DNA of 60,631 nucleotides, the filler included, from Hausera hauseri (lineage: Eukaryota), in assembly GCA_046269625.1 (NCBI GenBank). It is 11 parts of 11 records of this genome, joined end to end, with 100 filler letters (N's around TTAATTAATTAA, not from the genome) between each part and the next. Parts side by side here need not be neighbours in the genome. Positions count along the whole stretch, not along the records: positions 43,995 to 50,905 come from JBJURY010052774.1; 10 more parts are not named here. The stretch is one strand, 5' to 3'. This document shows, one piece after another, positions 16,477 to 56,465 of the stretch (its first letter is position 1; each line of letters opens with the position of its first letter). The position numbers and the translations under genes are program-made. The notes under the pieces were generated by a model. It saw only the letters and a program-made list of their open reading frames with translations. It had not been told where the DNA came from and ran no database searches.

Positions 16477-16524
16477 GAGCGACACCTCGTATGTGCCTAT
16501 TGTGTCAGGATAGGTGGCGCCTAA

Positions 16525-31676: not shown

Positions 31677-34600
31677 ACACCACAATAAGGCCACATTGCT
31701 TTCGTTCTCGGGGTGGGAATAGTGAATCCGTAATAAGGTCACAATGCCACACCACAATAAGGCCACATTGCTCTAGTTCTCGGGGTGGTAATAGTGAATC
31801 CGTAATAAGGTCACAATGCCTTTGTTCTGGGGGTAAGAAGAGTGAAACCACAATAAGGCCACATTGCTTTTGTTCTCGGGGTGGTAATAGTGAATCCGTA
31901 ATAAGGCCACAATGCTTTTGTTCTCGGGGTGGGAAGAGTGAAACCGTAATAAGGCCAATATGATTTGTGCACAGGGTGGCAATAGTGAAACAGTAAAAAA
32001 GAAACAATGCTTTTCTTCTCAGGAATGGATTAATGAAACCACAATAAGGCCACAATGCTTTTGTTCTCGGGGAGCGAATAGTGAAACCACAATAAGGCCA
32101 CATTACTTTTGTTCTCGGGGTGGGAAGAGTGAAACCACAATAAGGCCACATTACTTTTGTTCTCGGGGTGGGAATAGTGAATCGGTAATAACGTCACAAT
32201 GCCTTTGTTCTCGGGGTGGGAATAGTGAAACCATAATAAGGCCACAGTTCTTTGTTCTCGGGGAGCGAATAGTGAAACCACAATAAGGCCACATTGCTTT
32301 CGTTCTCGGGGTGGGAATAGTGAAACCACAATAAGGCCACATTACTTTTGTTCTCGGACTGGGAACAGGGAATCGGAAATAAGGTCACAATGCCTTTGTT
32401 CTCAGGGTGGGAAGAGTGAAACCACAATAAGGCCACATTGCTTTGTTCTTGGGGTGGTAATAGTGAATCCGTAATTAGGTCACAATGCCTTTTTTCTCGC
32501 GGTGGGAAGAGTGAAACCACAATAAGGCCACATAATTTTTGTTCTCGGGGTGGGAATAGGGAATCGGAAATAAGGTCACAATGCCTTTGTTCTCGGGGTG
32601 GGAAGAGTGAAACCACAATAAGGCCACATTACTTTTGTTCTCGGAGTGAGAATAGTGAATCGGTAATAACGTCACAATGCCTTTGTTCTCGGGGTGGGAA
32701 TAGTGAAACCAAAATAAGGCCACATTGCTTTCGTTCTCGGGGTGGGAATAGTGAAACCACAATAAGGCCACATAACTTTTGTTCTCGGGGTGGGAATAGG
32801 GAATCCGTAATTAGGTCATAATGCCACACCACAATAAGGCCACATTGCTTTCGTTCTCGGGGTGGGAATAGTGAATCCGTAATAAGGTCACAATGCCACA
32901 CCGATATAAGGCCACATTGCTCTAGTTCTCGGGGTGGGAATAGTGAATCCGTAATAAGGTCACAATGCATTTTTTCTGGGGGTAAGAAGAGTGAAACCAC
33001 AATAAGGCCGCATTGCTTTTGTTCTCGGGGTGGTAATAGTGAATCCGTAATAAGGTCACAATGCCTTTGTTCTCGAGGAGGGAATAGTGAAACCGTAATA
33101 AGGCCACAATGCTTTTGTTCTCATGGTGGGATAAATGAAACAGTAATAAGGCCAATATGATTTGTGCACAGGGTGGGAATAGTGAAACAATAAAAAAGAA
33201 ACAATGCTTTTATTCTCGGGAAGGAATTAGTTAAACCACAATAAGGTCACAATGCTTTTGTTCTTGGGGAGCGAATATTGAAACCACAATAAGGCCACAT
33301 TCCTTTTGTTCTCGGGGCGGGAATAGTGAATCGGTAATAACGTCACAATGCCTTTGTTCTCGGGAGGGAAAAGTGAAACCATAATAAGGCTACAGTTCTT
33401 TGCTTTCGGGGATAGAATAGTGAAAGCATAAGAAGGCAACAATGCTTTACTTCTCGGGGTGGAAAGAGTTAATCCATAATAAGGCCACAATGACTTGTTC
33501 TCCGGGCGGGAATAGTGAAACCATAATAAGGACGCAATGTTTTTGTTTTCGGAGTGGGAAGAGTGAATTAATAATAATGCCGCAATATCTTTGTTCTCAG
33601 GGAGTGAATAGCGAAACCATTATAAGGCCACAGTGCTTTTGATTCCGCGGTGGCAGTAGTTAAACCATAGTAAGGCCACAATGATTTGTTCTCGGTGAGG
33701 GAATATTGAAACCATAAAAGGGCCACACTGTTTTGTTCGCGGGGAAGGAATAGTGAAACAATAATAAAGAAACAATTCTTTTCTTCTGGTTCATGGATAA
33801 GTGAAACCATAATAAGGCCGCAATGCTTTTGTTATCGCGATGGGAAGAGTGAAATCATAATAAGGCCACACTGCTTTTCTTCTGGTTAATGGATAAGTGA
33901 AACCATAATAAGGCCACAATGCTTTTATTCTTGGGGTGGGAAGAGTGCAATCATAATAAGTTTACAATGTATTTGTACTATTGGTGGGAAGAGTGAAACC
34001 GTAATAAGGCCACATTGCTTTTTCCTCGGGGAGGGAATAGTGAAACCATAATGAGGCCACCGTTCTTTGTTCTCGGAGATAGAATAGTGCTTTTGTTCTC
34101 AAAGTGGGAATATCGAATCAGTAACAAGGCCACAATGCTTTTGTTCTCGGGGTGGGAAAAGTGAGACAATAATAAGGCCACAATGCTTTTTTTCTCGGGG
34201 TGGGAATAACGAATCGGTAACAAGGCCACCATGTTTTTGTTCTCGTGTTGGGAAGAGCGAAACCATAATAAGGCCACAGTTCATTTATTCTCGGGTCGGG
34301 AATAGCGAATCAATAACGAGGGCACAATGTTTTTAATCTCAGGGTGGGAACAGTGAATCCGTACGAAGGTCACAATGCTTTTGTTCTCGGTGTGGGAACA
34401 GTGTAACCGTAAGAAGGTCACAGTGCTCTTGTTCTTGGGGTTGGAATAGTGAAACCATAATTAGGCCACAACGATTTGTTCTCGGGGTGGTAATAGTGAA
34501 ACCATAATATGGCCACAGTGTTTTTATTTTCGAGGTGTAAATAATGATACCATGAAAATTCCACAATGCTTTACTTCTCGGGGTAGGAACAGTAAATCCA

Positions 34601-37600
34601 ACATAAGGTCACAATAATTTATTCTCGGGGTGGGAATAGTGAAACAATAATAAACCCACAATGCTTTTGTTCTTGGGATGGGAATAGCAAAACCATAATA
34701 AAAAATGCTTTTCTTCTCGGAAAGGGATAAGTGAAACCATAATAAGGCCACAATGCTTTTTTTCTCGAGGTGGGAATAGCGAAACCATAATAAGGCAACA
34801 ATGCTTTGTTCTCACGGTGGGAAGAGTGTAACCATAAATAGGCCACAAATTTTTGTTCGCCGGGTGGGAAAAGTGAGCCAATAATAGGGCCACAATGCTT
34901 TTTTTCTCGGGGTGGAAATAACGAATCGGTAACAAGGCCACCATGTTTTTGTTCTCGTGTTGGGAAGAGCGAAACCATAATAAGGCTACAGTGCATTTAT
35001 TCTCGGGTCGGGAATAGCGAATCAATAACGAGGGCACAATGTTTTTAATTTCAGAGTGGGAACAGTGAATCCGTAAGAAGGTCACAATGCTTTTGTTCTC
35101 GGTGTGGGAACAGTGTAACCGTAAGAAGGTCACAGTGCTCTTGTTCTCGGGGTTGGAATAGTGAAACCATAATTAGGCCACAGTTCTGTGTTCTCGGAGA
35201 TAGACTAGTGAAAGAATAATAAGGCCACAATGCTTTTATTCTTGATGTTGGAATATTTAAGCCATAATAAGGCCACAATTTTTTTTTCGGGGTGATAACA
35301 GTGAAATAACAATAAGGCAACAATGCATTTGTTCTCGGGGTGGGAAGAGTGAAACCGTAATAAGTCCACATTGATTTTGTTCTGGGCAGGGAATGGTGAA
35401 ACCATAAAAATGCCAAATTGCACTTATTCTCGGGGTGGGAATAGCGAAGCACTAATAAGGCCACAATTTTTTTTTCTCACGGTGGGAAGAGTGATACCAT
35501 AAAAAGGCCACAGCGCTTTTGTTCGCGGGAAGTGAATAGTAAAACCAAAATAATTCTACAATAATTTTTCTCGGGGTGGGAATAGTAAAACAATAAAAAA
35601 GCCACAATGCATTTGTTTTTGAGATGGGAATAGCAAAACCACAATAAACAAAAAATGCTTTTCTTCTCGGAAAGGGATAAGTGCAACCATGAAAAGGCCA
35701 CAATTTTTCTGTTCTCGGGGCGAGAATAGCGAAACAATAATGAGGCCACAGTGCTTTGTTCTCAGGGTGAGAAGAGTAAGACCATAATAAGGCCACAGCG
35801 CATTAGTTCGTGGGAAGTAAATAGTGAAACGAAAATAAGGCAACAATGATTTGTTCTCAGGATGGGAATAGTGAAACCATATTAAAGGAACAATGATTTT
35901 CTTCCCAGGAAGGGATTATTGAAACCATAATACGGCCACAGTGCGTTAACTCTCGGGGTGGCAATAATGAAACCATAAATAGCCCACAATGCTTTTGTTC
36001 TCCTGGTGGGAACAGTAAAACCGTAAGAATGTCACAGTGCTTTGTTCTTCGGGAAGGAATAGTGAAACCATAATAAGTCCTCAATGCTTTTCTTTTCGGG
36101 GTGGGAAAAGTAAAACCATAATAAGTCCACAATGATTTGTTCTAAGGGAGGGAACAGTGAAACCAAAATAGGGCCACAATGCTTTCATTCTCGGTGTGTG
36201 AATAGTGAAGCAATAGTAAGACCACAATACTTTTGTTCTCGGCGTGAGAATAGAGAAACCAAAATAAGGCCACAATATATTTGTTCGCGGGGTGGGAAGA
36301 GTGAAACCATATTATGGCCACAGTGCATTTATTCTCGGGGTGGGAATAATGAAACCATATAAATTCTACAATGCTTTTCTTCTAGGGGTGGGAAGAGGAA
36401 AACCAACATAAGGTCACAATGATTTGTTCTCGGGGTGGGAAAAGTGAGCCAATAATAGGGCCACAATGCTTTTGTTCTCAAAGTGGGAATATCGAATCAG
36501 TAACAAGGCCACAATGCTTTTGTTCTCGGGGTGGGAAAAGTGAGACAATAATAAGGCCACAATGCTTTTTTTCTCGGGGTGGGAATAACGAATCGGTAAC
36601 AAGGCCACCATGTTTTTGTTCTCGTGTTGGGAAGAGCGAAACCATAATAAGGCCACAGTTCATTTATTCTCGGGTCGGGAATAGCGAATCAATAACGAGG
36701 GCACAATGTTTTTAATCTCAGGGTGGGAACAGTGAATCCGTACGAAGGTCACAATGCTTTTGTTCTCGGTGTGGGAACAGTGTAACCGTAAGAAGGTCAC
36801 AGTGCTCTTGTTCTTGGGGTTGGAATAGTGAAACCATAATTAGGCCACAACGATTTGTTCTCGGGGTGGTAATAGTGAAACCATAATATGGCCACAGTGT
36901 TTTTATTTTCGAGGTGTAAATAATGATACCATGAAAATTCCACAATGCTTTACTTCTCGGGGTAGGAACAGTAAATCCAACATAAGGTCACAATAATTTA
37001 TTCTCGGGGTGGGAATAGTGAAACAATAATAAACCCACAATGCTTTTGTTCTTGGGATGGGAATAGCAAAACCATAATAAAAAATGCTTTTCTTCTCGGA
37101 AAGGGATAAGTGAAACCATAATAAGGCCACAATGCTTTTTTTCTCGAGGTGGGAATAGCGAAACCATAATAAGGCAACAATGCTTTGTTCTCACGGTGGG
37201 AAGAGTGTAACCATAAATAGGCCACAAATTATTGTTCGCCGGGTGGAAAAAGTGAGACAATAATAAAGCCACAATGCTTTTGTTCGCGGGAAGTGAATAG
37301 TGAAATAAACATAAGGCCACAATGCTTTGTTCTCGGGGTGGGAATAGTGAAACCGTAATAAAAGAACAATGCCTTTCTTCTCCGGATGGGATTAGTGAAA
37401 CCATAGTAAGGCCACAGTGTGTTTATTTTCCGGTTGGGAATAATGAAACAATAAAAAGTCCTCAATGCCTTTTTTCTTGGGGTGGGAACAGTGAAACCGT
37501 AAGAAGGTCACAGTGCTTTTTTCCCACGGGAGGAAATAGTGAAACCATAACTAAACTGCAGTGATTTGTTCTCAGGGTGGGAATAGTGATATATAATAAA

Positions 37601-39044
37601 AAACAATGCTTTTCCACTCGGAAGCGGATTAGTTAATCCATAATACGGCCACAAACATTTGTTCTCGTGGTGGAAAAAGTGAGACAATAATAAGGCCACA
37701 ATGCTTTTGTTCTCGGGAAGTGAATAGTGAAATAAACATAAGGCCACAATGCTTTGTTCTCGGGGTGGGATTGGTGAAACCGTAATAAAGGAACAATGCC
37801 TTTCTTCTCCGGATGGGATTAGTGAAACCATAGTAAGGCCAGAGTGTGTTTATTCTCCGGGTGGGAATAATGAAACAATAAAAAATCATCAGTGCCTTTG
37901 TTCTCGGGGTGGGAACAGTGCAACCGTAAGAAGGTCACAGTGCTTTTGTTCGCGGTGTGGGAACAGTGAAACCGTAAGAAGGTCACAGGGCCTTTGTGCT
38001 CGGGGAAGGAATAGTGAATCCATAATTTAGCAAGAAGGATTTGTTCTCGGGGTGGGAATAGTAACCCACAAAAAAGAAACAATGCTTTTTTACTCGGAAA
38101 CGGATTAGTAAAACCATAATGCGGCCACAGTGCTTTTATTTTCGGGGTGGGAATAAAGAAACCATAAAAAGTCCACAATGCTTTTGTTCTTGGGGTGAGA
38201 ATAGTGAAACGATAAAAAGGCCACAATGATTTGTTCTCTGGGTGGGAAGAGTGAATCCGTAATAAGGCCACACTGCATTTGTTCTAGGGGAAGGAATGGT
38301 GAAATCATAGTAAGGCCAAAGTGCTTTTATTCTCGGCGTGGGAATAAAGAAACTATGATAAGACCACAATGTTTTTGTTCTCGGTGTGGGAAAAGTGAGA
38401 CAAAAATAATGCCACAGTGCATTTATTCTCTGGGTGGGAATAGCGAATCAGTAACAAGGCCACAATGTTTTTGTTCTCGGGGTGCGAATAGTGAAAACAT
38501 AATAAGGCCACAATGGTTTTATTATCGGTGTGGGAATAGTTAAACCATAATAAAGCCACGATTTTTTTTCTCGGGGTGATAATATTAAAACAATAATAAG
38601 GCAACAATGCATTTATTCTCGGGGTGGGAATAGTGAAACAACAATAAAGCACAATGCTTTTTTCTACGGATTGGAATAGCAAAACCATAATAAACAAAAA
38701 ATGCTTTTCTTCTCGGAAGGGGATAAGTGAAACCAAAATAAGCTCACAGTGCTTTCTTTCGGGGTGAGAATAGCAAAACCATAATAAGGCCACAGAGCTT
38801 TTCTTCTCGGCGAGGGAATAGTGACACTATAATAAGGCCACAGTTCTTTGTTTTCGGGGATAGAATAGTGAAACCATAATAAGGCCACGGTACTTGTGTT
38901 TTACGGGGAGGAAATAGTGAAACCATGATAAGGCCACAATGATTTGCTCTTGGGGTGGGAATAGCGAAAAGATGATAAGGCCACAAATTTTTGTTCTCGG
39001 GGTGGATAAAGTGAGACAATAATAAGGACACAATTTTTTTATTC
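31677..39044. repeat. Satellite array of a ~48-bp monomer (~150 copies)
   Basis: Consensus ATAAGGCCACAATGCTTTTGTTCTCGGGGTGGGAATAGTGAAACCATA fills the whole contig. Confidence 0.97.
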
Positions 39045-39144: not shown

Positions 39145-39360
39145 TGTTTTGGTTTCAGTAACAGTCTTGTTGTACGTTATTTTCATACTACCTTTCAATG
39201 TCACCGGTGCGTAGGGAAAGTCAAATTCCGTCAGTGCAACCTCCCATTTTCCAACAGATAAATCCAAAGGATTGTTCCAATCTACAACGTATTCACTGGC
39301 TAAATTGTTTGGACGAGTTGTCGGACAACTGTTGCTCGGCAACACCATGTAAATACTCAT
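39145..39360 (-). CDS. Penton/minor capsid-like protein 2, N-terminus
   Basis: IYMVLPSNSC..PNN..Y..PLDL..GKWEVALTEFDFP, the Polinton/adintovirus penton N-terminal motif. Confidence 0.72.
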
Positions 39361-39501
39361 GATCTCGATGATGATGATGATTATCGTGATGATGCCAGAA
39401 TCCAGTTCGATAGAAGCCAGAAGTTGTTTACGTTCTCCACCAACGAGTACGGATTTGGTTAAATTCGTTACAATGTTGATTCGGTAAAATGCTCCATAGA
39501 G

Positions 39502-40275
39502 TTATGGTTGGTATTTGGCAACAATAGATCGTCCAACAATGCTTTGATATAATTTACGTTGTGAAAAACCCAGATTCCAAACCAATAATTCGTCAAAGGC
39601 AAAATGTGTAACATTGTGATGTACTGTAATCGAAATGCGACCATCGGCGTTTATTTCACATGTCTTTACGGCTAATGTGGCCGATTTCTTGATATATTCA
39701 CACAATTCCATTCCCGTTTCCATTAGTAAATCATGTGGTATAATATAATAGAGGAAGACGGCTTCTGACTTAGTCCACTTTACTATAATATCAGACTCCG
39801 CATCGGAAGAAAGGTCCAATGTTTCACCAATTATAACATGTCCACCTAGATGTAGACGTGTTGAGTGTACATTGACTGATTGTAAACCCCATGTCTGAGC
39901 ATTAGCTATAGATTTAAACTGCAATTTCATGGGACTTCGATGCATTAGTTTCATACGGTAGTTTGAAAAATAAGCATAAACCGAAAAATTTTCTCGAGAA
40001 TAATTGCGAAGAACATATCGGTTATTTTGTCGGATTGTCCGCAAACAACTTGAAATAGGGTACGTTTCTTGTCGGATAAAGTAAATACCACTGTTCTGAC
40101 GTATTGTCATTGGTGAAAATGGAAATGTGAATTCCGTCAAAGCCACTTCCCAGGCTCCCTGGCACAAATCGACCGGTTGATCCAAGTGCATAGTAAACTG
40201 TTTAGTACTATTATCATTGTCGTCATGTTACGATAATGATCTGTTAGTAGCAAGTACCAAGTAAAAGATGTTCAT
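39502..40275 (-). pseudogene. Penton/minor capsid-like protein 1
   Basis: MNIFYLVLATN..(in-frame stop)..DNSTKQFTMHLDQPVDLCQGAWEVALTEFTFP. Confidence 0.72.
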
Positions 40276-40276
40276 T

Positions 40277-41310
40277 GAATCTGTGGTGCAAAAATCCAAC
40301 TCGGTTCAGTGTATCCGTGCCACTTGACGAAATATTGTTTATTCAAAACTTTGCCACGTGAACGTAGAATTTACTGAATACCATATACATGGAATTTCTC
40401 GAGCAGTACCTGCAGTTTCTGTTCGCAGAATTTACTGCGTATTTCCTCACCGTTTTCATCCTCTAAAACGTATATGACAGGTGTTTGTTTTGTGTTAATT
40501 GTCGAGAAACGGAAATCCTTGTCGCTGCAATTCTGATTGAAATTTTTAATGAATGGCGTCGTGCTTATTTTCGAAATACGTACGTAAGCACCGATTTTAT
40601 ATCTTGGGCGTTTAATTGCCTATCGTTTTTAGTTTTGATAAAGCCACATGTCCAAATCATCGATTACATCAACCTGGCGCATTCCGTTAATTCCACGGAG
40701 TGTTGAATGACTGTATGCTTGCATAGTATCCGGCAGTACATCTACCCAGCGTTTTTTGCCTTGCTTCGTAAAGAATTTGTTTAAGCGACCACGCAATGTT
40801 CGATTCAATTGTTCAACAAGTGCAGCTTTGTATTATGAAAATTCCGAATAGTGGTTTACGCCGGACCGTTTCAAGACCGCTACAACGTGGGCGTTGCATA
40901 ATTACTTACCCAAATCCGTTTGTAAATGCTTCTGCTGTTGTTGTTGTATCAGCATCTGAACAGCGTCAGCAATCAGTTTACCGGATTTGGATTTCACAGC
41001 AATTGCATATGCAAAACGGCTAAACATATCAATACATGTTAGCACGTAAAGATACCCATCGTTAATGCTGGCATGCGGAATGATTTCCATTAGATCCATT
41101 TGTCATACGTTATTTACACCGGAAGCACGCTATGCGCGAGTTGGAAACCTCCTTCTTATCGGTTTGTTTAAGCTGTATGCTAACTGTTTCCCGAGCCAAC
41201 GTTGGGTCTGTGGCCGAGTCTGTTTGACAGTCTTTGCCAGTTTGTCGACGCCAGTATACCCGACGAGATGACTCAGATCGAACCACACGTTGCCCATCGT
41301 TGTCATAGAT
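40277..41310 (-). pseudogene. Polinton RVE integrase with C-terminal chromodomain
   Basis: YTGVDKL, WL..QLAYSL.KPIRRRF, QMDL, YLYVLTCIDMFSRFAYA, LQTDLGK, QYFVKWHGY. Confidence 0.88.
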
Positions 41311-41429
41311 GATGTCACTTTTGTTTGCATTGCAGAAATTTGAACGAAAAGTTAAGGAGAAATTCGGCAAACTTGGTCAAAATGATGAAAACCATGAACC
41401 CATATCGCTAAATCATCATATACTTACCG

Positions 41430-41769
41430 TCACTGTTTATAGTATGCTGCTGCAAAACCAATGTGTTCACCCAATAATGACGTGAAAATCGGTAGAATTG
41501 CACCAAGGAATCCGCCATCTTGCTGGTACATTACCTCTCGTTTCAGTCGTTTACAACTAGCGTTGGCAAGGTCAGTGAGTCGTTTTCGATACTTTAGTAA
41601 ATTCTTGCATTCCACTACCAATGTCAACGTGACCCATAACGATATTGTATAAAATTTCCATCAAATCGTTTACTACAAACTGCGGGAATAAACGTAGCAT
41701 GTTTCGCTTATGTTTCGTAGGTGCCTTGAGCAAAGCAATAAAGTATGGCTGACTACGTTTGAATCGCAT
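41430..41769 (-). pseudogene. Small Polinton protein with a GGFL amphipathic motif (frameshifted)
   Basis: LLKAPTKHKRNML..LMEILYNIVMG / QQDGGFLGAILPIFTSLLG. Confidence 0.65.
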
Positions 41770-41809
41770 ATATAACTTGGTCGGTCCAGACCGACTTCTT
41801 CTCTGTTTA

Positions 41810-43894
41810 ACAGCACCGCAACCAATCCACTGACTGCCGAAGCTTGCTGGTATACGTAACCAGCCGCTTTTCCGAGTTACATAGGCGTAAATTGAGCCGC
41901 TTTTTCAGATTCTCCACTGTTCTTCCGTACAGGGAATTGTTTTTCAACTTGTAATAGTCCTTTTCAAACTTTGTACAAGCTGTGGCTTATTTCTTCGAAT
42001 TTCCATCTATGTACGCTTTGAATATGGGAGCCTGAGCAAATCTGATTGCACGATGCAGCTGTGTGACGCGTACACCGAGCTGCATGTACAACTGTAGCAG
42101 ATGCCAATAGACCATGTAATTCAGCTTCGGTTTATGCGCCATGAGCAGTTTCTTCACTTTTGAGCCTTGCGGACATTGATTAAATGGTGCAACAGGTAAA
42201 TCGTCCAAAACGTTATTTAGTTTATATGGTACTACGAGATCGACCTCCATCAGGTATTCGATTGAGTCTGCCATGTCTACTCGTGGTAGGTTAACCATTA
42301 CGTCGTCCAGATCTTGTGTGTCAAATATTCATTCAAATGAACCGTATGGCAAGGGTTGCGAAAGCACCCAGCCGTACAGGTTATTAATATCAATATACAA
42401 CATTGATGTGGTATCGGTAGCACTGACCTGGTGCTTGTTGGCAAATGTCATGCCCCCACAAATACTAACATTAAACATTCCGTACATTTCTGGGTCTTGC
42501 AATAGCTCTATATCCCGATCCTGTGACATCAGAGCTGATACCCAACTCATTCCCGGTATGAAATAAAAGTTGAGGGGCTCCAGCCTATCTTCTGCTAACG
42601 CTTTAGCTCGAAATGTCTAAAACACGTCGGCTAACAAGTACTCGTCCAATTTCAGATTCTGAAGCATGTACTACAATAGGTTTCTGCAGCCGAGCTCTGT
42701 CCAATACGATTGTGCATTGTGATGTTCTTCTTCTGAGATACCTGGCCATTGCGGTAATAATTCGTCTGTCGTCTGGAGCCGCTCTTACAATATCGCGAAA
42801 TCATACGGGAATATGCCTTTGCTACATGCAATGTGTGGAGAACTAAGTTAATGTTAGAAGCACATCTGACAAGGCATTTACCAGCTTTACCAGAGATTTA
42901 TTGTGAAATTGCAATGAATTAAAGAAGCGTACCTGGAACCCGTTTATTCAAGCAGACAGTGACAGGTATTTTTCCATCTTAGTCGGAATTATGGAGAGTT
43001 CCCAGTGCGGAAAGCCGTTAATGGCCCGTTTGAGAATATGGTGACAGTCATAACATAGGAAATTATGAAAGATCACCGGCAGGAAAGGTCGCACTCGCCT
43101 TGCTAAATTGCATGAATTGCATAATGCTCCCAAGTATCGACTGGTGAAATGGTCGTGATCCGATACCAGCCGTTCCTGCGCATCAAACGGTATTATTTTG
43201 TGGCACAGATAGCATTAATCGGTGACATCGAAAAGCAAAGGTTGATATTCGTCTGCCCAAATCAATGGCTTATTGCAATTTTTCCGATACCACGGCGCGA
43301 TTTTCGTTGCTTCTATGGTTTACAACTGCTGCAGAAAATTACGTACACAGTTCCAACCATGGAAAACGTAATACTGCGGTTGTCCGGCGGCTTTTATTGG
43401 TACTAGCAATATACCGAGGGCAATTGAAACGTGCTTTTGATCGTATACATTGTGCCGTGGTACAATTTCTTCTATATCGGCGTACACCAAATATGCAGGA
43501 CTTTCCGCTTTTGACCAGTCACTAAATCTGAACTCCTTTTTGACTGGCATAACATACATTGTGGTTCCTGACGAAGTTTACCTGCACAGCACCGCATGCT
43601 TTTCCCATGTCTCATTTGACTGAAATCCATGCAAACACACAGGAAACCATTTGCATCCTATACGCTTTTTGATGAACTAGTCATACTCCATGTTCAACAA
43701 TCTGTCTAAATTGGTCACGACCGTGTAATGAAACTTCTCTTCATTTTCCAACAGCAACAAATTTACTAAGCGTCTAATTGGATTTCGACTGTGGCAAATT
43801 ATGTCCACGTGAGGATTCTTGTAAATTTCCTCATCCACCAGTATCTCTACAATTGTGTTAAACCGGAACATGTTGATTGCCAGTGTCCGATTAC
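41810..43894 (-). pseudogene. Protein-primed family B DNA polymerase (pPolB), C-terminally deleted
   Basis: LVYADIE, DHDHF..YLGALCNSCNL, VIFHN..YDCH, ICGG, motif A YIDINNLYG, motif B KLKNNSLYGRT. No DTDS motif C before the next gene. Confidence 0.88.
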
Positions 43895-43994: not shown

Positions 43995-45505
43995 AAATTT
44001 TATCCGTATTTTCATATACGTTCTAGTAGCTTCATTAGTCTTGAACCAGATACATGGTTTCTTCCAATCTATGTCGTAAGCTTTCATTGTCTTGAGGTTT
44101 TCTATGTCCTTTTGTCCTTCCCTAATTTGTTGATCTAACTTAATTTTAGCCTCTCTTCCTTTCTTACTGATTCCGTAGATATCTGCTAAACTAGATTCGT
44201 CGTGCCACCATTGGGCTTGTGTCTTTGGAACATAAGAGGCGATTAAGGATAATGCTAGGATTATCTGTACGTAGGATACTGGTCTGTTAACTATGGCTGA
44301 TGTTTTTGTTTTCTTTTTGTCTTGATTTGGTTTTAGATTCTGATCTCTGGATCGTAAATTATATTGTCTGTTTGGTCTTATTTCTGTTTTAACAACTCTT
44401 TGAACGGAGATTATCTCTTCTTTTCCGTTTTTATTAATATATATAGTAGTTGGTGTGGTTCGAACAACTTCATAAGGTCCTCTTCCGGTACGAGTGAGCT
44501 TTAAGGACGTACCTTTCTTTGCTACTGGATAGTGTACGTAAACCCAATCTCCCTTTTCTAAATCATGAGGTTTGGCTTTCTTATCGTACTGTTTCTTAAA
44601 CTGTTCTTGATATTCCCTAGATACCTACTTTGCTATTTCCAACGCTTTTATAATCTCGTATGCAATACTTCAACAAATTTCTGTTCTAAATCTTCTGGAT
44701 TTAACATACACGGTGTCATGCCTAAATCCGTTGGTAATATGACATCTTGTCCATACATCATGAAAAATGATGTAAATCCAGTTGCGGGATGTGGCGTGGT
44801 ATTTATAGAAAATCAAGTTCCTTCTAAAAATTCATTTCAATCTTTTTGATCTTTTGCCATTACTGTTGACAAAATTCGTATAACTTGCATTCATTCGTTC
44901 AACAATTCCGTTACATTGAGGATAGTAAGCTGTCGCAGATAATCGTTCAATTTCAAATATTTTGATGATCATATCGAATAATTCGCTTGTAAAAATGCTT
45001 TTTCCATCTGTTAAAATCTGTTCGGGAGGTCCATATCTGCACATAATTTTTCTTACTACGGCTTCTTCCAGAGTTAGATGGTCAATAAACGTCAAAAAAT
45101 ATTACATTTGTGAGTGGTGGTTAACGGTCCTACAATATCCATGGACATTGCTTGCATTGACCTATCCGGTAAGATTATCGGTTTCAACTTAGCTATTCAA
45201 TATTGCACTTTTCTTTGTTTAGTTGCGCATACTTCACAAGCGTTCACCCAATTCTTTACATCAATATAAATGCTTGGCTAATAATATTTAATATTCTTTG
45301 TAATGTCTTTCCAAGATATGTGTCCAACTAAGTATGATTCGTGTTCGGCCGTTAGTACTTCTGTTCAGTCCTTTTGGTATAACTACTAATTTCTGTCCCT
45401 TGCGTTCGTAGTATAAAACGATTTCATGAGTATTGCCATCCTTTACGCAGTATTTACGACCGAGTCTCTGCAAATGTTTTCGTAATTGGTAGCCTTCTGG
45501 CATAA
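43995..45505 (-). pseudogene. pol: Integrase continuing in frame into a signal peptide and ectodomain
   Basis: Open frame from ~44623 to 43995: ..GRGPYEVV..RQYNLR..PVSYVQIILALSLIASYVPKTQAQWWHDES..PCIWFK. Confidence 0.88.
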
Positions 45506-45509
45506 TGTC

Positions 45510-46110
45510 TTTTTCTGTAAATTCAATAATTTAATTGGAGTTGGAGCATTATTTACTAATCTAATCATCACACGACCTGACGATACCCTCGTTAATACAT
45601 TACTGAGTATGATGTTTGGATTCAGCGTTTCTTTTGGTTCGAAATACACTGGCTGATCATCGTTTTGACGAATCTCTGTTCTGGGTGGGATATTTGCATC
45701 CACTGGAATCCATACTTCTCCGGATTTTCTATCTTTGATGATTTTTACTCCTTTTATTGGTCAAAGTTCTATTAATTTTCCTGCATAAAAATCTATTGCT
45801 CCATTTGGTAACTGTGTCAGTAAATCGTATCCTAATATTACATCGTCAGTTAACTGTTCCATTATTGAGAATTCATGATGAAATGATAATCCCATCATGT
45901 GAATTTCAGGATTCCATCTGTATTTACATCTCGATAACTGGCCAAAAGTTCCAGTTTTTCCTGGTCTGCTGCTGGTAGCAGATACAGTTGTTTTCGTAGC
46001 ATTTGTGGTATCGAGTCGTGTTTGATCAGTGATATTTCAGATCCTGTACCGATTACTACAGAGACCTCCCAGTCTTCAATATGAATTTTAGAGAAAGGTC
46101 TTCCTTCTAT
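45510..46110 (-). pseudogene. Aspartic protease plus dUTPase-like spacer
   Basis: GRPFSKIHIEDWEVSVVIGTGSEISLIK; IPPRTE..YFEP..IRLVNNAPT, matching copy A. Confidence 0.85.
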
Positions 46111-46789
46111 TGTGCCATAACAATTTGGTAAATCTTTAGTGCTTAATTACTGATAATTTATACCCATTTCTGGAATTGTAACTGGTTCATCAATTAATTG
46201 CCTCAATTCTCCATTCGGATACAATTCATTATTTACATAATTGACCGTCTCTGTTTCTTGACTTCTAATTATTGTTTGTGGTTCTTGACTTTTGAAAGTT
46301 TGCATTTCTTGGTCTCTTGACAATGTTGATCTGGTTTCATTGGCTCCATGTATTTTTGTAAAATATAGTATTCTATGGTCATCAAATGAATGGTGTCTGT
46401 GCGGTGCAGATGTACTTCTTGTTTCACGCATTTTCGTAATACACCATAGTGTTTCGTTCCTTCATAAGGATCATCAAAATTAAATGGTTTTCTAGATTTC
46501 CGTTTAATATGAACTCGCTGATCGTTTGTCACAATATTCATATGCTGGTGCAGTTGGAGGTAACATAGGCAATGGTGGTTTTATGACGGAATATGCTTTG
46601 TCTGTTTATTCTGGAAACGGCATCTCTTATCTTAGGCTAGTCAAAATCTGAATTATTTCTTCGCGTTTTTAGATTAATAAATTTTCGTCCGTAATTAAAG
46701 GTGGGTCTTTTCCGTCGTTTACGATTATAGTAGCCAAAATGTCCTTCTACATCGTTTTTCCATCTACTTTCTTCGTAGACCTTTAAAAA

Positions 46790-48500
46790 TTTACCGAAAG
46801 GTGTTATGATCGCAGTTAAAAATTTGCACGAAAATCGTATCAGCGTAAATGTCTCACTCATTTATGATTGGTTGAATTACTGCTTTGACTGATTGTACTA
46901 GAAAATATATTGGTAGAAATCCAGATGCGGCTTGTCAAGAAATTAGGAATCTTCCCACAATTTTATAAGGTTTCTGTAGTCACTCTTCGGTAGTGCTTAG
47001 TATCAAGTAACGATTCCCATTTTGCTTGATACCGTGTGCCTTCTAATACTGTATACATCGCTCTGTTTATGTTGACGTTGGAAAGCTAGAAACTGTCTAA
47101 TTGCTTAGACTTCTTTTGGTCTATAAATACTTTTAGTTGCAGTGTCATGGAATTTGTCATCTGTCATTCCTTTCACTAAGTTAGTTTCTGTCAATATACT
47201 GGGCGGAGTGGTTATACCTTCGTTCGGTAAACTCATCCATTCCGTTTCGTTACGTGTGAACATAGGTACTCCTCAGCTTGCTTTGCATTCTTTTAGGACT
47301 GTTGGTTCAGTCTAATTTGCCAAGACAGCTCCAGTAAGTGGCATTTCCAACCTTGGTGTATTTTGGTATAAAACCGGAAGTTCTTCTATACATCTCTTCT
47401 ACATTGATCGGAACATCTCATCACATTAGCAAGTTAGGAAAACTTCACCGGTGACTCAACCAAAAATGCCTTCTTCCATTGGAATTATTGGTGATGCTAA
47501 CTCAATATTGGCATATATCAAGTCTAGTTTAGTTCTCATAATTTCCATATCCAGTTTACAGTCGTCCGTTACCATTTTGTGATACAATTCGATTATTCTG
47601 GCTTGTTCTTTGTAATAGAAGTAATCATCTACTTTTCAAATAATCGTCGATTCGTACGTCGTGTCAAGTTTGAAAATTTTAGAATCTAATTCTTTTTCGG
47701 TTACAAAGAATGCTTCGTAATTAGTGACATACATTATAACAGCGCATCGTGAACACAGCCTTATTGATAAATTTTAACCCATGAGCATCCGATACTAAAA
47801 TAGTTTCCATAGATTGCACTACCACATCCTCTCGCGATCTCATTGCCATCTGCCTTATTTAAATATCTTTTCCTTGAAGTTTCGTTAAATGTTAATTCTT
47901 TAATTTTAATAAAGTTTCAATCTGTTTTTAGAAGGTTGTTCCCATACTATAATCGAAATTCTAAAAGCACAAGTGCCGTCTTATATATGGCATTTCTCAT
48001 TTTCATTGTAGAGCTTAGTAAAACTATGGAACATCGCTTGCTGCGTTCGCATGTGGGTCTCGTAGAAATTAACTACTACTACACCCTCTTCTTTTCCTTT
48101 TCCAGTATCGTATTCAGCTCCAGTACATAGTCCTGTGTGCATGTATAATTTTCAAAGCGCTCCTTTGAATGATCTAATTATTTTTCCTTAATGCAATTCC
48201 AGTTCCATACCTTTCCATGCTAATCTACCAGTTTCTTTAGCTTGTTTACAGTGCTGTCTTTCCAAATTCATTGGGATCGGCTGAATGTTTGGCTTTATTA
48301 AATGCATGAATGTCCATGCATTTGTCCACAATGGAAAATACTACGAGATCTAGGTAACATACATTCTATTCCGAATTCATCTAATACTCTACCTCTAAAA
48401 TAGAGTCGATAATTTACGTCACTTTTAGCATCGTTATTATCCATTGTTTTACATCTCTAACAGATGAAGCCGTTGTGCACTCACATTCTTTCTCATCCAT
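46790..48500 (-). pseudogene. env: Chuvirus-G/herpes-gB-like class III fusion glycoprotein (env-like)
   Basis: Colinear motifs: SVRDVKQ(C); ECML.RSRSIFHCG.MHGH; ERQHCK; GLCTGAEY..GVVVV; IVWEQP; MYVTNYEAFFV; ELYHKMVTDDCKL; GIFG.VTGEV; CIEELPVLY; ATKSIY..RQFLAF; membrane region QAASGFL.IYFLVQ..FSCKFLTAII. Confidence 0.85.
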
Positions 48501-50359
48501 CCACTCGGATGACACCTTTACTTTTAACGCCACATCGGGTTTAGCCCTCAAGATTTTAGCATCTTTTATTAAGAGTTTTGGCACAGCACTATAAATCGTG
48601 TTTTCGCTAGATAATTTAGTTTAAGTATGAATAAATCGTCTTAACGTATTTTCAGCGAAATTTACGTTAATAAGTTCAATTAAATGTCTCTCAGTTAGCG
48701 CTGGATCCAGAATAATTTCTACACTGAATCTTCGATTCTGTGGGTACATATTTGTTTCATACAGGTGTACTGAAGTTTTCGGATTTCCGTCGATCATTGA
48801 ATTCAAATATGCATCCCATTCTGGATCGTTTTCGTTTTCTGGAGTTACATTGTCAATTAATTGCGTATCTGATTGTCGTGTTACGTCTACGTTTTATGCC
48901 ATCTCTCTTCGCATAATTTCTGATAAAATTCAAGCATTAGAATTGTCCGGAAACAGATTCCAGTCCCACAAACACCATGTAACAAGTTCAACAACTGATA
49001 GTTCATCTTCTTGGATGATTCCTTTTTCTGTGCAATTGGTTAATTCGGATATTACTTCATATTGCCATCTTTGTACAAACTCTGATTTGTTGGCCATTTC
49101 TGATTCAGTGAGAGCTTATTTATTCCTGTAGACTTCCACGTCTTTGACAAATTTCTATTTTTCTTTCGTCCATACGAATTTGGGTTTTCTGAGTATGACG
49201 TATCAGGCTTTGTAGCTGTCTCATTTTCTCATCGTTAACTTCGGCTATTTCTACTAATAACAACTTTAACCTGCTCATTTTCTTTAACGATTTGGCGTCA
49301 GGGTTGATTTTTTCAATCAATTTTTTTATAAAACTAGTTTCTGCGAAAGTGAGTTGATGGTCTTCCACTATTTCTATTAATTCGTCATGCTATTTTTAAT
49401 CTGATCCAGGCATCCATCTAGATGGATTTTGCAGAAATTTAACACGTCTGCAAAAGAGTTCTAGTAATCCGAACAAATCTCTAATATCTTACATTCTTGT
49501 GTTGTGATCTCGTTTATGGGTTTTACCGTTAGATTCTGTATTCCTTCTAGATGAAAATTCCTAATTATTGGATAAAGGTCACAAGTTCTACTTCGCCTTG
49601 TTGAGAAGTTTAATTCCAGTCATTTGGTAGATTTCACGTAACAACGATGTCTCGTTTTTGCTCATTCAGATGCATTCGTATACCTATTTCTGTTCTCAAT
49701 GTCTAAATTTCGCATAATTTCGTTTATTTCCTGTTTCAGGGTCGACTGGACATATGGATATTCTTTCATACGCTTAAGAATTCGTCGGTTTAATTCGGTC
49801 AATAGATCATACCATTCCTTCAATTGGTTATCAATTACCGGTTTGATCACTTGCTCTATCTAGCATTTTGTGACAGTCTTTTAACCTGTCATCTGGACCT
49901 TCTATAAGACCCATAATTTGTTTGACAAAGTTAAACTCATTTTTATATTCATCGAATTCCAGAATACAAGCTTCAATTATAGCTTTTGTGTCGTCATTGT
50001 TTAAGTTCATTATTCGGTTCCTTATGCAATAAATTTCCGACCACTTGCCATTTTCTTCCTCGATGTGAGTTTCGATATTCCCATATGGCTTAGGTTCAGT
50101 AAACGCAATTCACATCATCGCCATCAGAGGTGGGATATCTACCGCATCAATACTCAATATTTTCAAGTTAGTTTCGTTTCGCGAATCAAACGGTTTCTCT
50201 TACAGGTAGGTAACTATATCATATCTTGCCGCACTCAGCAATTTGTTCGGATTACCGTTTACTCGCTTTGATTGTGGATTTTCTAACGTGGGTATTAACT
50301 CGAGCCTTAGTTATTTTCTCACCAATGTGATCCCAGTCTTGGTTCATGATTCTGGAAGA

Positions 50360-50905
50360 TTAGTTCCACTTTTTATCCAGATTTAATTCAGTTTTCCAAT
50401 TCTCTATCAAGTCAATTGACTCGCCCAATTTTTCTTCATTGAATGACATTAATTTCGTGTACATTCTTTCAGTGAACTGCTGTTCCTTGCCAGAAATATC
50501 CACTTCTAATATCATTTCGAAATCTTGAGCTAACTGCAAAGTTTTATCAAAGTTTTCTGGTCGAGCTAAAATAAAATGTTTTAATAAATCGCTAGACCAA
50601 ATACCATTAATTAGTTGCGTCGTCTTCATGACGTCTAAATCAAGGAGTTGCTTTTCTGCGCAACTACATTAACTAATCTTAAAGTATTCACATAACTATT
50701 TGCAAGCTTCTTTAATGCAAATGCAAACTGGGTTACCGATTCACCCTTCTGTTACATTCTAATCTGAAAAGCAAAGTTTTTGTTGCGAGGTCACCGTCGG
50801 TAATAATTTTCGACTTAAAACTCCTACCAGGGAAGACCAAGATTTCTTCTCATCGTTAGTGAGTTCACTATAGGCATCAGCAGCCAAATTTTTCAAATAT
50901 AATGA
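50360..50905 (-). pseudogene. gag: Retrotransposon Gag (capsid) domain
   Basis: YLKNLAADAYSELTNDEKKSWSSLV..; GESVTQFAFALKKLA; QLINGIWS..PENFDKTLQLAQDFE. Confidence 0.8.
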
Positions 50906-51199
50906 NNNNNNNNNNNNNNNNNNNNNNNNNNNNNNNNNNNNNNNNNNNNTTAATTAATTAANNNNNNNNNNNNNNNNNNNNNNNNNNNNNNNNNNNNNNN
51001 NNNNNTTTTTCGGTTAGTGCTATTGATCCTATTTTCGGTATATACGAAGCAATTAATGACAAGGCGAGTATTACCTGTGCATAGGATATCGGTCCGGTTA
51101 CTATCGTCGACATATTCTTGTTTTTCTTTGAAGGATTTATACTTTCTTTACTCAAACGCAGGTTGTAGCGCTTGTTTGGTCTTATTTCCGTTCTAACTA

Positions 51200-54100
51200 C
51201 TCTTTGGATGGACATAATCTCTTCCTTATCGTTTTTATTAATATTAACTAGTTGGTGTGGTCCGAATAACCTCGTACGGTCCTCTGCCTGTACGAGTGAA
51301 TTTCAAGGATGTGCCCTTTCTTGCAACCCAATTCCATTGTTCTAGATCATGTGGTTTGGCTATATTATCATACTGCTTCTTAAACTGCTCTTGATAATCT
51401 GGATAATTCTTTGGCTATTTCCCAACACTTGCGTAGTCTCGTCTGTAACACTTCCACAAAATTCCGTTTAAAATCCTGTGTGTTCACTGTATACGGTATC
51501 ATTCATAAATCTGTGGGCAGCGCAGCTTCCCTGTATTACATCATGAAAAACGGGGTGAATCCCGTTGCAGGATGTAGTGTAGTGTTTATGGCGAATTGCG
51601 TGCCTTCTAAAAATTCGTCCTAATCCTTTTGGTCTTTCTCCACTACGGTTGGAATGATTCGTATCACTGTCGCGTTCATTCATTCAACCATTCCGTTACA
51701 TTGAGGGTGTTAAGCTGTCGTGGTTAGTCTTTCGATTTCGAATATTTTGGTAATTTTTTAGAATAATTCACTCGTGACGTTTCTTCCTCGGTCTGTCAGA
51801 ATTTGTTCAGGAGGTCCGTATCTACAGATAATTTTCCTCACTAATGCTTCTACCAGAGTTTTGGCTTTCTGGTCCATTAATGCTATCAGTTCGACGAAAT
51901 GAGTTAGGCGATCTACACACGTTAGAATGTAATTGTTATTTTTTGAGTGGTAGGTAATGGTCCTACAATATCCATGGACATTGCTTGCATTGGTCTATCC
52001 GGTACGTCTATTGGTATAAGTTCGACAATGTAGTTTTTCACTTTACTTTGTTTTGTTGCGCATACTTCACACTCATTTACCCAATTTTTCACGTCTATGT
52101 ATATGCTTGGCCAATAATATTTATTTAGTATTTTCTCTAAGGTTTTCTTTCATGACATGTGTCCGTCTAAGTAGGAGTCGTGTTCGGCCATTAACGCTTC
52201 TGTTCGTAATTATTTTGGTATGACTACTAATTTGCGTCCCTTGCGTTCATAATACAGTATGTTTCCATGATTTCCGCTTCCTGCTACGCAATATTTATGA
52301 CCGTGTCTTTGTAGGCGTTTCCGTAATTGGAGCTCTTTTGGCATTCGGTTATTTTCAACATTTTCGATGATCTGTTGTATGACTTTGTCTTTCTTCTGTT
52401 CGACTGAAATTTTAACTGCTTTATCCAATGTTAGAGTGTGTTGTCTGTCTAGTAGTTCTTCGAGCTGAGTTTTTCTCATTACAGTAATTGCGCTCGTTTT
52501 AGTTTTAAACTTTGATAGTGCATCAGCATCAACATTTTTGCTTCCAGGTTTATGTTTAAATTCAAAGTTATACCATGAGATCTCTTCTATCCATCGTTTG
52601 AGTCTACAAGTGGGGTTATTTGCTCGGTCCTTCAAGGTTGTAACTGCCTTATGATCCGTAGCAATTATAATCTTCTGTCCGTAGACGTATACGTTAAAGT
52701 GTCGTAGAGCTTCTTTTACAGCTAACGTTTCTAATTCCGTGACCGAGTATTTCTTTTCGGCCTTTTTTATTGATCGTCCTCGTACGCGATCGGGTATTCT
52801 AGTTCTTCGTCTTCCCGTTTTTGGGCCAACTCATACCCGATGCCCTCTTTGCTTGCGTCCGTTTTAATTATGAAAGGTAGATTAAAATCAGGATATCTCA
52901 ACACAGGTTCACTAGTCAAGATTTTCTTCATTTCGTCGAAAGCTTTTTGTTCGACATCGGTCCATTTTCATTTAACTCCTTTTTTAAGTAAGCGATACAA
53001 AGACGCATTTATTCTTTAATTGTCAGGAACATAAGTGGCATAATACCCATATAAACCTAACTAATGCCTTAGCTCCTTCTGATTTCGAGGTTCCATGAAA
53101 TCTGATATTTTACTTAACAGCAATTTATCGGGTCTCGATCCCCCTTCTCCGACTATATGTCCGAGATAAGATGCGGCATTTTGAGCCCATTTACATTTCT
53201 TGGGGTTCAATTTCAATACGGCTTGTTCTATCCTCATAAGTGTATCCTCAATATCCTTCAAATGTTCTTCTTCTGTCCTTGACGCGATCATTACGTTGTC
53301 TAGATACGCGAATACATGTTCCAATCCCATTAACATCCTGTTCATCATTCGAGTAAAAATGGCTGGTCCGGTAGTTATCCCGAATGGCATGACATTAAAT
53401 TCTTATACACTGTTGTGTGTCTTAAATGCAGTTTTATAACGATTTTCTTCCTTTATTTCTACCTGCCAATATCCGGATTGCAGATCAAGTGTGGTGAACC
53501 ATCTAGCTCCGGAGAGTCTGTCTAAGGCTTCTTTTACGGAAGGTAGCGGAAAAGAGTCTTTCATCATAAGTGTATTTAACTCTCGATAATCGATACAGAA
53601 TCAATGTTTCGTGGTATCTTTCTTCTTATCCATAAGTATGGGTGAGTACCAGGATCTATAGCTTGGTCTAATTATGTCAGCCTTTAACATTCGTTCTACT
53701 TCCTTCGTTATTTCCGGTCTTAATGAGTGGGGCAGATGATACCATTTCGGCATTTTCTGGTCTTCTAAATCTATTTCATCACTGGAGCCAAGCTTTTTCT
53801 TAAGTGGAATCGTTAGTCTTAAGGTTTTAGCTCTGCCAATATCTTCTTCATCTCTGGAAATAACCAAGTTATAATGGCAAGGTAATTCGTAAAATCAACA
53901 ATATGCTTCGGGTGAGAATTTAGTTTCGACGTGAGGTGGAAATTCCGCACATTTGTAAGGTTCGATAGTTATTGACGATACTCTATACGTATGATCCAAG
54001 GTGGTATTGGCGTACAGTTTGAATGGAGTTAGTACATTATTAACTATTCTAATGGGCACACGGACTGTCGATACTCTGGTTAAAACGTTACTGAGTATAA

Positions 54101-54610
54101 TGTTCGGATTTAATGATTCTTTTGGTTCAAAGTATACTGGTTAGTCGTCGTTTTGATGGGTCTGAGCGTATACTAGCACCTCTGTGCTAGGTGGAATGTT
54201 CTCATCTACTGGAATCCAAACTTCTCCGAACTTTCCAACTGTGGTGGTTTTAACTCCTCTTATCGGACCAAGTTTTATTAACTTTCCTGCATGGAAGTCT
54301 ATTGTCATATTAGGTCATTGTTTCAACAAATAGCATCGTAAGACTACATCGTCTGTTAACTGTTCCATTACTGAAAATTTGTGATGAAATTATTATCCCA
54401 TCATGTGAATTTCTGGCGTCCATCGGAATTTGCTTTCCGATGACTGTCCAAAAGCTCCGACACTCTCCGAGTCCGTTGATGAGGGTGGATACAGTTGTCC
54501 TCGCGGGAGCTGCGGTATTGAATCATATTTTATTAGAAATATTTCAAATCCTGTGTCTATTAACGAGTAGACTTCCCAATCTTCCAACTGAATTTTTGCG
54601 AAGGGTCTAC
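51200..54610 (-). pseudogene. pol: Gypsy pol PR-RT-RH-IN
   Basis: SLIDTG; WYSPILM; MPFGITTGPAIF..YLDN; TDASK; KPGSKNVDADALS; IN core. Confidence 0.95.
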
Positions 54611-55269
54611 CTTCGATTACCAAGCCGTAGTAATTTGGCGCTAATTTTTGATGTTGAACCGTTGATACCTTATAGCCGTTAATTTTAACTTCAGTGGTGG
54701 CAACTGGCTGGTTGATCAATTGTTTTAACTCTCCAAATGGGTACAATTCATTATTCGTACCATTTACGTTTTCCGTTTCCCAACTTCTAACCCATATTTG
54801 TATATTCTGGTTTCCGAAATTCTGCGTTTCCTGGTCTCTTGAAAATGGTCGATCGTATTTCATTCGATCTGAGTATTCTAGATGAATAAATTATGCCGTG
54901 ATCGTCGACGGCCGAGCGACGATATGGGGCAGACGTTCTTTTCGTTTCGTGGACCTTACGTAATATACCGTAGTGCTTTGTTCCATCGTAAGGATCTTCA
55001 AGGCTAAACGGTTTTCTGTAGATATCTGTTTGATATGAGCTCATAGATTGTTTCTCACAATCTTCATATATAACTGCAGTTGGCGGTAATATTGGTAATG
55101 GTGGTTTTACGATGGAATAGTTTTTGTGTATATTTATCTTGGAGACGGCGTCTCCTCTCTTAGGCTCGTCATCATCTGAGCTGTCTCTTCGTGTCTCCTT
55201 TTACGTTTTCAATTGTGATAGCCAACGTTTTGTTCCACATCTGCTTTCCATTTACTTTTCTCATAAGGT

Positions 55270-56015
55270 CTTAAGAGTTTGCCGAAGGGTGTGATAATAG
55301 CCGTTAGGATTTAGCACGAGAATCTTGTCAAGGTAAATATCTAATATCCATTTATAATCGCTTGAATAATTGCTTGAACCAGTTGAATTAAGAAATAAAT
55401 GGCCAGAAATCCTGATTCGGCTTGTCCGAATATCAGAATCCTTCCCCAAATTTTATACCGTATCTCTGTTGTTACTCTTTGATAGTAGTTAACACCAAGT
55501 AATGATTCCTATTTTGCTTGATAAAACTTGTCCTCTAGTATTGTATGCACCGCTCTGTTTAATTCATGTGTGCGTTGGTGTGGAAAATCAAGAAATTGTC
55601 TAAATACTTTTACTTCTTTCGGTCACTAAATACCCTTTGCTGCAGTATCTTGAAACTTATCATCAGTTATTCCTTTTATTAAATTTGTTCCCGTTAACTT
55701 GGTGGGCGGAGTAATTATACCACCATTTGGAAAAATTTATCCAATCGGTTTCGTTTCGTCTAAACATCGGTTCTCCTAAACTGGTCTTGCGGTCCTTTAG
55801 AATTGTAGGTTAAGTGGAGTTTGCCAGTAATACTCTAGTAACTGGCGTTACTAATCTCGGTGTGTCCTGATATATTACTGGAAGTTCTTGTATGCATCTC
55901 TTCTCCTCTACATTAATGGGTACATCTATTTTCTCGCATTCATAAGTCAGTAGGACTTTTCCGGTCACTCGACCAAAAATGCCTTCTTTCATTGGAATTA
56001 TTGGTGATGTTGAGG
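55270..56015 (-). pseudogene. env: C-terminal half of the chuvirus-like glycoprotein
   Basis: GIFGRVTGKVLLTYECEKIDV..RCIQELPVIYQDTPRLVTPVTRVLL; AAKGI..FRQFLDFP; KIWGRILIFGQAESGFLAIYFLIQLVQAIIQAIING. Confidence 0.85.
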
Positions 56016-56413: not shown

Positions 56414-56465
56414 GAACGAACGAACGAATGAACGAACGAATGAAAGAACGAACGAACGAATGAAC
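56414..56465. repeat. (GAAC/GAAT)n microsatellite
   Basis: About 13 tetranucleotide units. Confidence 0.9.

Follow-up and report, generated by a model that had tools for sequence, protein, structure and literature searches.

In a Ty3/Gypsy LTR-retrotransposon family of Hausera hauseri, the Pol reading frame continues past the end of integrase into a predicted type I membrane protein, which was probably released from the polyprotein by two cuts, one made by the element protease and one by host signal peptidase. The window, i.e., the whole stretch of DNA analysed (60,631 nt), consists of 11 contigs joined end to end by N-spacers (A, 1-5379; B, 5480-10180; C, 10281-15304; D, 15405-21535; E, 21636-26790; F, 26891-31576; G, 31677-39044; H, 39145-43894; I, 43995-50905; J, 51006-56131; K, 56232-60631). 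Contigs A, D, I and J are decayed pieces of this one family, with approximately 70% identity over Pol and 66-75% over the integrase end, the linker behind it and the hydrophobic segment that follows; at 4-7 kb the contigs cover only parts of the element. 7032 contigs of one public sequencing run (X1) were related to copy I, indicating that the family is a large, diverged, multicopy eukaryotic repeat. All four copies in the window are broken, none with intact ORFs, and are thus dead. The join between integrase and membrane protein is a real, selected feature of a dead, once active element family. An assembly artefact as the source of the join was rejected because the same join is present in four separate contigs.

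The Pol domain order (protease, reverse transcriptase (RT), RNase H, integrase) is that of Ty3/Gypsy elements (Metaviridae). Copy A (2-3360, plus strand) displayed matches to Pfam RVP, RVT_1 and RT_RNaseH followed by an integrase homologous to that of copy D, which is open over 365 codons (20315-21412, minus strand; Pfam Integrase_H2C2 and rve). In the integrase profile search described below, the closest long relatives were Gypsy-type Pols at ≤35% identity. In the Pol blocks that matched an outside Pol, 4 stops were found in 803 codons of A, 14 in 764 of J and none in 327 of D, and copy I had 11 stops in 215 codons, a count inflated by frameshifts within the match. An internal deletion at approximately 45530 in copy I joins the protease spacer directly to integrase, with RT and RNase H gone, and the integrase itself is broken by stops and frameshifts; copy I by itself is therefore no proof of an open frame from Pol to the membrane protein. 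No copy is open all the way from the integrase core to the membrane helix, and the continuity described here is a composite of overlapping open frames from different copies: D is open across the integrase core up to the C-terminal module, I from the C-terminal module into the ectodomain, A keeps a single frame, interrupted by nine stops, across the linker and the whole membrane protein, and an outside protein, P0002 (479 aa, ENA), is open from the hydrophobic segment to its end.

In copy I, a 210-codon open frame (43995-44624, minus strand) spans the integrase C-terminus, the linker, a signal-like peptide and the first 73 ectodomain residues before it is cut by the contig end. The first-pass annotation had reported approximately 209 open codons at this place, in agreement with our count of 210 from the previous stop (44624) or 209 from 44621, both to the contig end at 43995; the frame is open as claimed, however, its limits are set by a premature stop on the upstream side and the inter-contig spacer on the downstream side. 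The integrase C-terminal (SH3-like) module of this frame (44433-44567, minus strand) is homologous to the end of the integrase frame of D and was matched by Pfam MLVIN_C with an E-value of 0.0014, which is below the curated cut-off. Between this module and the hydrophobic segment the linker of copy I is basic. As the annotation had also stated, the three other copies have the same hydrophobic segment in frame behind the integrase end. Copy A (3362-4879, plus strand) carries the integrase end, linker, signal-like peptide (3464-3544), three beta domains, a membrane helix (approximately 4709-4783) and a tail, all in one frame with nine stops. Copy D (18810-20313, minus strand) carries the integrase end, linker, signal-like peptide, ectodomain, membrane helix (approximately 18912-18968) and tail, with two stops and one frameshift near 19730, and copy J (51006-51248, minus strand) carries the integrase end, linker and hydrophobic segment before the contig end.

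A conserved stop between integrase and the peptide was sought and was present in none of the four copies (none of them intact). The linker, measured between two anchors, was 111 nt long in A, 144 nt in D, 138 nt in J and 144 nt in I, all multiples of three, and was stop-free in the Pol frame in all four copies, with one to seven stops in each other frame. Shuffled linkers were stop-free with probabilities of 0.61, 0.32, 0.16 and 0.26, giving a product of 0.008 if independent, and these statistics overstate independence as the copies are related, though their divergence is deep. Most changes fell on third codon positions, the counts for positions 1/2/3 being 13/9/32 in the motif block (the nine codons that precede the hydrophobic block), 23/3/49 in the hydrophobic block itself and 19/15/46 in the integrase end. 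Copy I has no Met ahead of the hydrophobic segment, as had been noted at first pass. The accompanying claim that only D has a Met there was incorrect, since J carries a Met as well, at 51113, which is 15 codons upstream of the anchor point within the hydrophobic core. The Met of D (20160) and that of J stand at different positions, the other copies having Ile/Val and Thr there.

An integrase profile search (proteins of ≤2000 residues) returned 38 Gypsy-type Pol proteins, all distant, and none of the 38 had a comparable hydrophobic segment behind integrase; their best 11-residue hydropathy was ≤1.98 compared to 2.58-2.67 in I, D and A and 2.30 in P0002. A search for fused polyproteins in the same size range left one of 514 candidates, P0002, which is without integrase. 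Relatives of the 209-codon frame of copy I were sought in the JGI metagenomes (351 pattern matches) and in IMG/VR (16), with none confirmed in either, and seven JGI loci that matched a degenerate pattern of the integrase C-terminal motif were all unrelated by tblastn.

Cleaved signal peptides have a basic n-region, a core of 7-15 residues, small residues at -3 and -1 and a helix breaker near -5. The hydrophobic segment is laid out in a similar manner, with a short n-region containing Arg, approximately 14 hydrophobic residues and finally Pro, Thr and Ala at positions -5, -3 and -1, these three being shared by A, D, I and P0002 with -2 and +1 variable. In J the C-region is altered, at the contig end. 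Over 19 residues the hydropathy of the segment was 1.38-1.79 compared to 2.26-2.80 for the C-terminal helix; the segment is thus short and weakly hydrophobic, which fits a cleaved signal. Judged by rule and hydropathy, A, D, I and P0002 all display the features expected of a eukaryotic cleaved signal. In copy I the predicted internal signal peptide (44214-44294, minus strand) has 27 residues between two putative cuts, an 11-residue hydropathy of 2.58, a 19-residue hydropathy of 1.56 and the same Pro, Thr and Ala, and the 27 residues that a cut at the linker motif described below would leave are likely a canonical signal peptide length.

Three of the four linkers, A (3452), D (20187) and I (44306), contain the motif K-T-S-A/S followed by Ile, approximately seven residues ahead of the hydrophobic core. 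The same motif stands at domain borders within Pol, i.e., ahead of the protease in J and, in both A and J, at the protease/RT and the RNase H/integrase borders, with the border motifs of A at 602 and 2086, and from this position at domain borders we infer that the motifs are protease cleavage sites. In copy I a likely element-protease site (44292-44306, minus strand; K-T-S-A, with the putative cut before Ile) resembles the RNase H/integrase border of A and J, to which the seven residues around it are identical; this seven-residue string occurs three times in the window and in none of 30 shuffles. A score matrix trained on the five Pol-internal border octamers alone ranked the linker site first among all non-training windows in A (3468 windows), D (3800) and I (4052), with scores of 12.8 compared to 10.8 for the next best in A, 13.6 compared to 12.0 in D and 15.2 compared to 11.8 in I; in A and D the lead is narrow. 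The specificity of the matrix is incomplete, as a window in the protease-RT spacer of J scored 16.0, above all three linker sites. In J the linker motif is lost and the site fell outside the top 7 of 3234 windows. A pattern written post hoc gave nine matches compared to 3.3 expected, eight of them at borders, which is weak evidence for that reason, and a looser five-residue motif was not enriched (7 observed, 5.0 expected), so that only its position is informative. The sites of the Ty1 protease, as given in the available part of the source, are unlike the border motifs of this family (PMC6952103), and no published cleavage site for this element family was found in the accessible literature. 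The linker motif is likely an element-protease site that would free integrase.

The arrangement suggests the following processing. The nascent chain would re-engage the ER translocon at the internal hydrophobic segment, and host signal peptidase would cut after the conserved Ala on the luminal side, freeing the ectodomain. On the cytosolic side the element protease would cut the linker, giving integrase a free C-terminus and leaving a signal peptide of 27 residues, and the membrane protein would end on the surface of cell and particle. The first-pass annotation had proposed that signal peptidase releases a type I membrane protein from Pol. That part is supported by the lack of a stop and of a shared Met in all four copies, by the Pro, Thr and Ala at -5, -3 and -1 and by the type I protein that follows, however, a further step is needed. 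Signal peptidase acting alone would leave integrase tied to the membrane, so that a cut by the element protease would also be required, and the candidate site for it lies approximately seven residues before the hydrophobic core. As Pol has no stop, some such processing would be needed for a soluble integrase in any case.

The env of Drosophila gypsy and of retroviruses is made from a spliced subgenomic RNA, and the membrane protein could likewise come mainly from a spliced message with an acceptor just before the signal peptide, the motif then only trimming read-through integrase. Pol is usually scarce and a surface protein is needed in larger amounts, and three of the four copies (A, D and I) share an AG located 9 nt upstream of the hydrophobic block, preceded by a pyrimidine fraction of 0.67 in A and 0.73 in D (the 90th percentile of the AGs of A is 0.60). 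We nevertheless consider this explanation rather unlikely: J has no AG, the context in I is average (0.47), an Arg codon accounts for the AG equally well, the residues upstream of it are conserved as protein (32 of 54 changes at third positions), and Pol still lacks a stop so that a polyprotein route exists anyway.

The hydrophobic segment could also be an uncleaved signal-anchor, giving a two-pass product with integrase freed by the element protease only, and a 19-residue hydropathy of up to 1.79 in A would suit it; an anchor is improbable, given a core of only approximately 14 residues with Gln and Ser among them and the Pro, Thr and Ala that stand behind it at -5, -3 and -1 in A, D, I and P0002. 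Scarcely any more credible, and if anything a little less so, is the view that the membrane protein belongs to an independent gene next to Pol, translated from an ATG or near-cognate codon of its own, and that the shared frame is a coincidence. P0002, the most intact membrane protein, has three Mets right ahead of the hydrophobic segment and lacks the motif, and there is an ATG in the linker of both D and J; against this, A and I have no ATG, those of D and J differ in position, the Pol stop is missing from all four copies, the indels are of whole codons and the protease-like motif is present in three of four. P0002 may represent a subfamily with a separate start, or it may be a broken copy. 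Release from a continuous polyprotein by two cuts remains the reading that we prefer.

The protein behind integrase is predicted to consist of three fibronectin type III (FN3)-like domains, one membrane helix and a short tail. P0002 aligned over its full length to A and D with 31-34% identity and to I with 49%. A profile built from five sequences found only P0002 and P0007, both singletons, among 1.84 billion representatives. An AlphaFold2 model from six sequences was of low confidence (pLDDT 56, pTM 0.30) and displayed a helix after the signal, three beta sandwiches, the third preceded by a Thr-rich spacer, and a membrane helix at the C-terminus. The best PDB matches by Foldseek were tandem FN3 structures (fibronectin, contactins and gp130; best E-value 3.6e-10, 6-12% identity), with whole-chain TM-scores of approximately 0.2 because the orientation of the domains is not fixed. 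The model thus points to FN3 beta sandwiches, with low confidence for the first domain, which was the weakest in both the model and the fold match. Pfam returned no fn3 match and nothing else on P0002 or on the frames of D and A, and the protein is called FN3-like because no sequence match to the Pfam fn3 clan was found. fn3 clusters in a language-model atlas (0.83) are a lead only. The viral fold library of Foldseek gave generic FN3 proteins only and thus indicated no donor virus. A role as a fusogen was rejected for this protein as its predicted fold is FN3-like, and no class II fusogen was among the fold matches listed. The ectodomain carries N-glycosylation sequons and conserved, paired Cys, and the tail ends in Tyr-x-x-Ile in D, P0002 and P0007 and not in A, an ending that resembles an endocytosis signal.

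A probable distant relative is encoded on contig C (14606-15304, minus strand), where an FN3-like domain and membrane helix (tblastn to P0002, E-value 0.023; best Foldseek E-value 3.6e-3, all matches FN3-type, target TM-score approximately 0.67) are probably the end of the same kind of protein. Right behind it lies a 405-codon open frame (13388-14605, minus strand) with one short stretch similar to the ORF behind the membrane protein of D (E-value 0.014); its C-terminal third appeared by eye to be DEDD-type exonuclease-like, with no Pfam support.

The remainder of the element could be assembled from several copies. Upstream of Pol, copy I carries a remnant of a chuvirus/herpes-gB-type envelope (47072-47749, minus strand; Pfam PF24664, E-value 3.9e-10, read with X at stops) and copy J a homologue of this remnant (55498-56010, minus strand), both on the minus strand and 5' of the protease. 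The element has the HSV-gB/chuvirus-type envelope gene, and its position upstream of Pol, of gB-type errantiviruses; this envelope is the first membrane protein of the element, and the predicted protein behind integrase would be the second. No PDB sequence match was obtained for the envelope remnant. Between envelope and protease there is a Pro-rich stretch (approximately 46580 in I and the matching place in J) with, by eye, a Tsg101-type late-domain-like motif in I that is altered in J. Further upstream than the envelope, a putative Gag-like remnant in copy I (50450-50905, minus strand) was noted from motifs by eye only, with no Pfam match. Directly behind the membrane protein, a decayed ORF of D (17800-18809, minus strand) is conserved in A (approximately 4880-5362; tblastx 41-51%), with no Pfam match and no family found. 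A RING finger on contig D (16681-16812, minus strand; Pfam zf-C3HC4, E-value 2.9e-07), probably in the 3' region of the element, lies between the accessory ORFs and a purine run, seen by eye near the 3' end of D, next to the probable 3' LTR. The order of the element is thus a possible Gag, gB-type Env, Pol, FN3-like membrane protein, an ORF without a family, and RING.

Several other contigs of the window carry unrelated or distant sequences. A more distant Gypsy family, whose integrase C-terminus resembles that of I (44% identity), occupies contig F (26891-31576); this contig ends before the expected place of the signal-like segment, and contig E (21636-26790) holds another, unrelated decayed Gypsy Pol. 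Contig G (31677-39044) is a degenerate tandem repeat array throughout. A 241-codon ORF on contig H (39502-40227) is Polinton minor capsid (penton)-like by eye, with no Pfam match. Contig K (57503-58444) carries an intronless rhodopsin-family GPCR (7tm_1, E-value 4e-09), which presumably resembles gastropod chemoreceptor-like genes, so that the contigs may derive from more than one animal.

Five published systems are the closest to this arrangement. Errantiviruses with a GAG-ENV-POL layout and an HSV/gB-type Env have been described from Nematoda, Bryozoa and Platyhelminthes (Chary and Hayashi, eLife 2026, PMC13524379) and share with the present family a Pol of PR-RT-RH-IN and a gB/chuvirus-type envelope upstream of it; in contrast, a second membrane protein behind integrase is not described in the available part of that paper. 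The words fibronectin, attachment, receptor and RING are absent as whole words from its main text, and according to the part available its survey did not extend to other ORF arrangements. The flatworm and bryozoan elements listed in PMC13524379 may carry an unannotated FN3-like protein. Atlas virus and related nematode belpaoviruses encode one stop-free Gag-Pol-Env polyprotein (Merchant et al., 2022, PMC9094657), with membrane glycoproteins downstream of Pol and predicted helices and cleavage sites laid out as in phleboviruses. These are Belpaoviridae, whose downstream proteins, as set out in the accessible text, are phlebovirus-like Gn/Gc including the fusogen (PMC9094657), whereas here the fusogen is upstream and the downstream protein, being FN3-like in the model, would be neither Gn/Gc nor a fusogen. 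The giant planarian Gypsy elements Burro/GYPSM1 encode a single large polyprotein in which Env stands in frame after gag and before pol, together with added domains including RING-type and MATH; unlike in the present family, no membrane protein behind integrase is named in the portion of the source at hand (Arkhipova and Yushenova, PMC6431247). Env-in-polyprotein layouts are thus already published for Burro and Atlas, and the first-pass likening of the join to RNA-virus polyproteins is less exotic than it seemed, since single Pol-Env and Gag-Env-Pol polyproteins are on record, in the texts available, for LTR retroelements. MATH domains, known from Burro elements, were also present in the window, in two ORFs on opposite strands of contig B (6328-6882 and 8075-8581; Pfam TRAF-mep_MATH, E-values 4.1e-12 and 3.4e-04).

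Bdelloid LTR retrotransposons carry ORF3 cargo that includes small membrane proteins and DEDD exonucleases (Rodriguez et al., 2017, PMC5408684); these elements likewise have extra 3' coding capacity, however, the cargo consists of separate ORFs in the part of the study available, and the word fibronectin is absent from its text. For the two cuts themselves, the nearest parallel is that of flaviviruses, in which, according to the accessible text, a viral protease and signal peptidase act at internal signals (C/prM and NS4A/2K/NS4B), i.e., an internal signal peptide is flanked by a viral-protease site facing the cytosol and a signal-peptidase site facing the lumen (PMC11721386). Flaviviruses are unrelated RNA viruses and the parallel is mechanistic only. 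Their viral protease cuts directly before the C/prM and NS4A/2K/NS4B signals. The openly accessible literature searched yielded no description of a second, FN3-type membrane protein downstream of a Gypsy integrase, and the protease-type border motif in the linker is new here.

Envelope-carrying retrotransposons are usually treated as Gag, Pol and one Env, and herpesvirus gB depends on separate receptor-binding partners. The role that we favour for the FN3-like protein, though tentatively, is that it may attach to target cells as a partner of the gB-type fusogen, a suggestion drawn solely from the topology, the fold and the presence of that fusogen; the main alternative is decoy or immune modulation on the producing cell. 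More speculative, and on balance doubtful, is two-component entry from one polyprotein, with the gB-type fusogen before Pol, the FN3 attachment protein after integrase, and Pol between them as a cytosolic loop, anchored in the membrane on either side and set free when the protease cuts the duplicated site. If true, attachment and fusion would be the work of two different proteins in a retrotransposon, as they are in herpes- or paramyxoviruses, and membrane tethering would be a route of loading Pol into budding particles. The duplicated protease motif makes the processing of the polyprotein testable at the peptide level. With almost no sequence relatives, such genes would be missed by homology-based annotation. 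As a second, co-translated surface protein, the FN3-like protein is a concrete candidate for how gB-type errantiviruses may find their target cell; should it merely be cargo on the producing cell, it would still be an unusual accessory membrane protein built into Pol.
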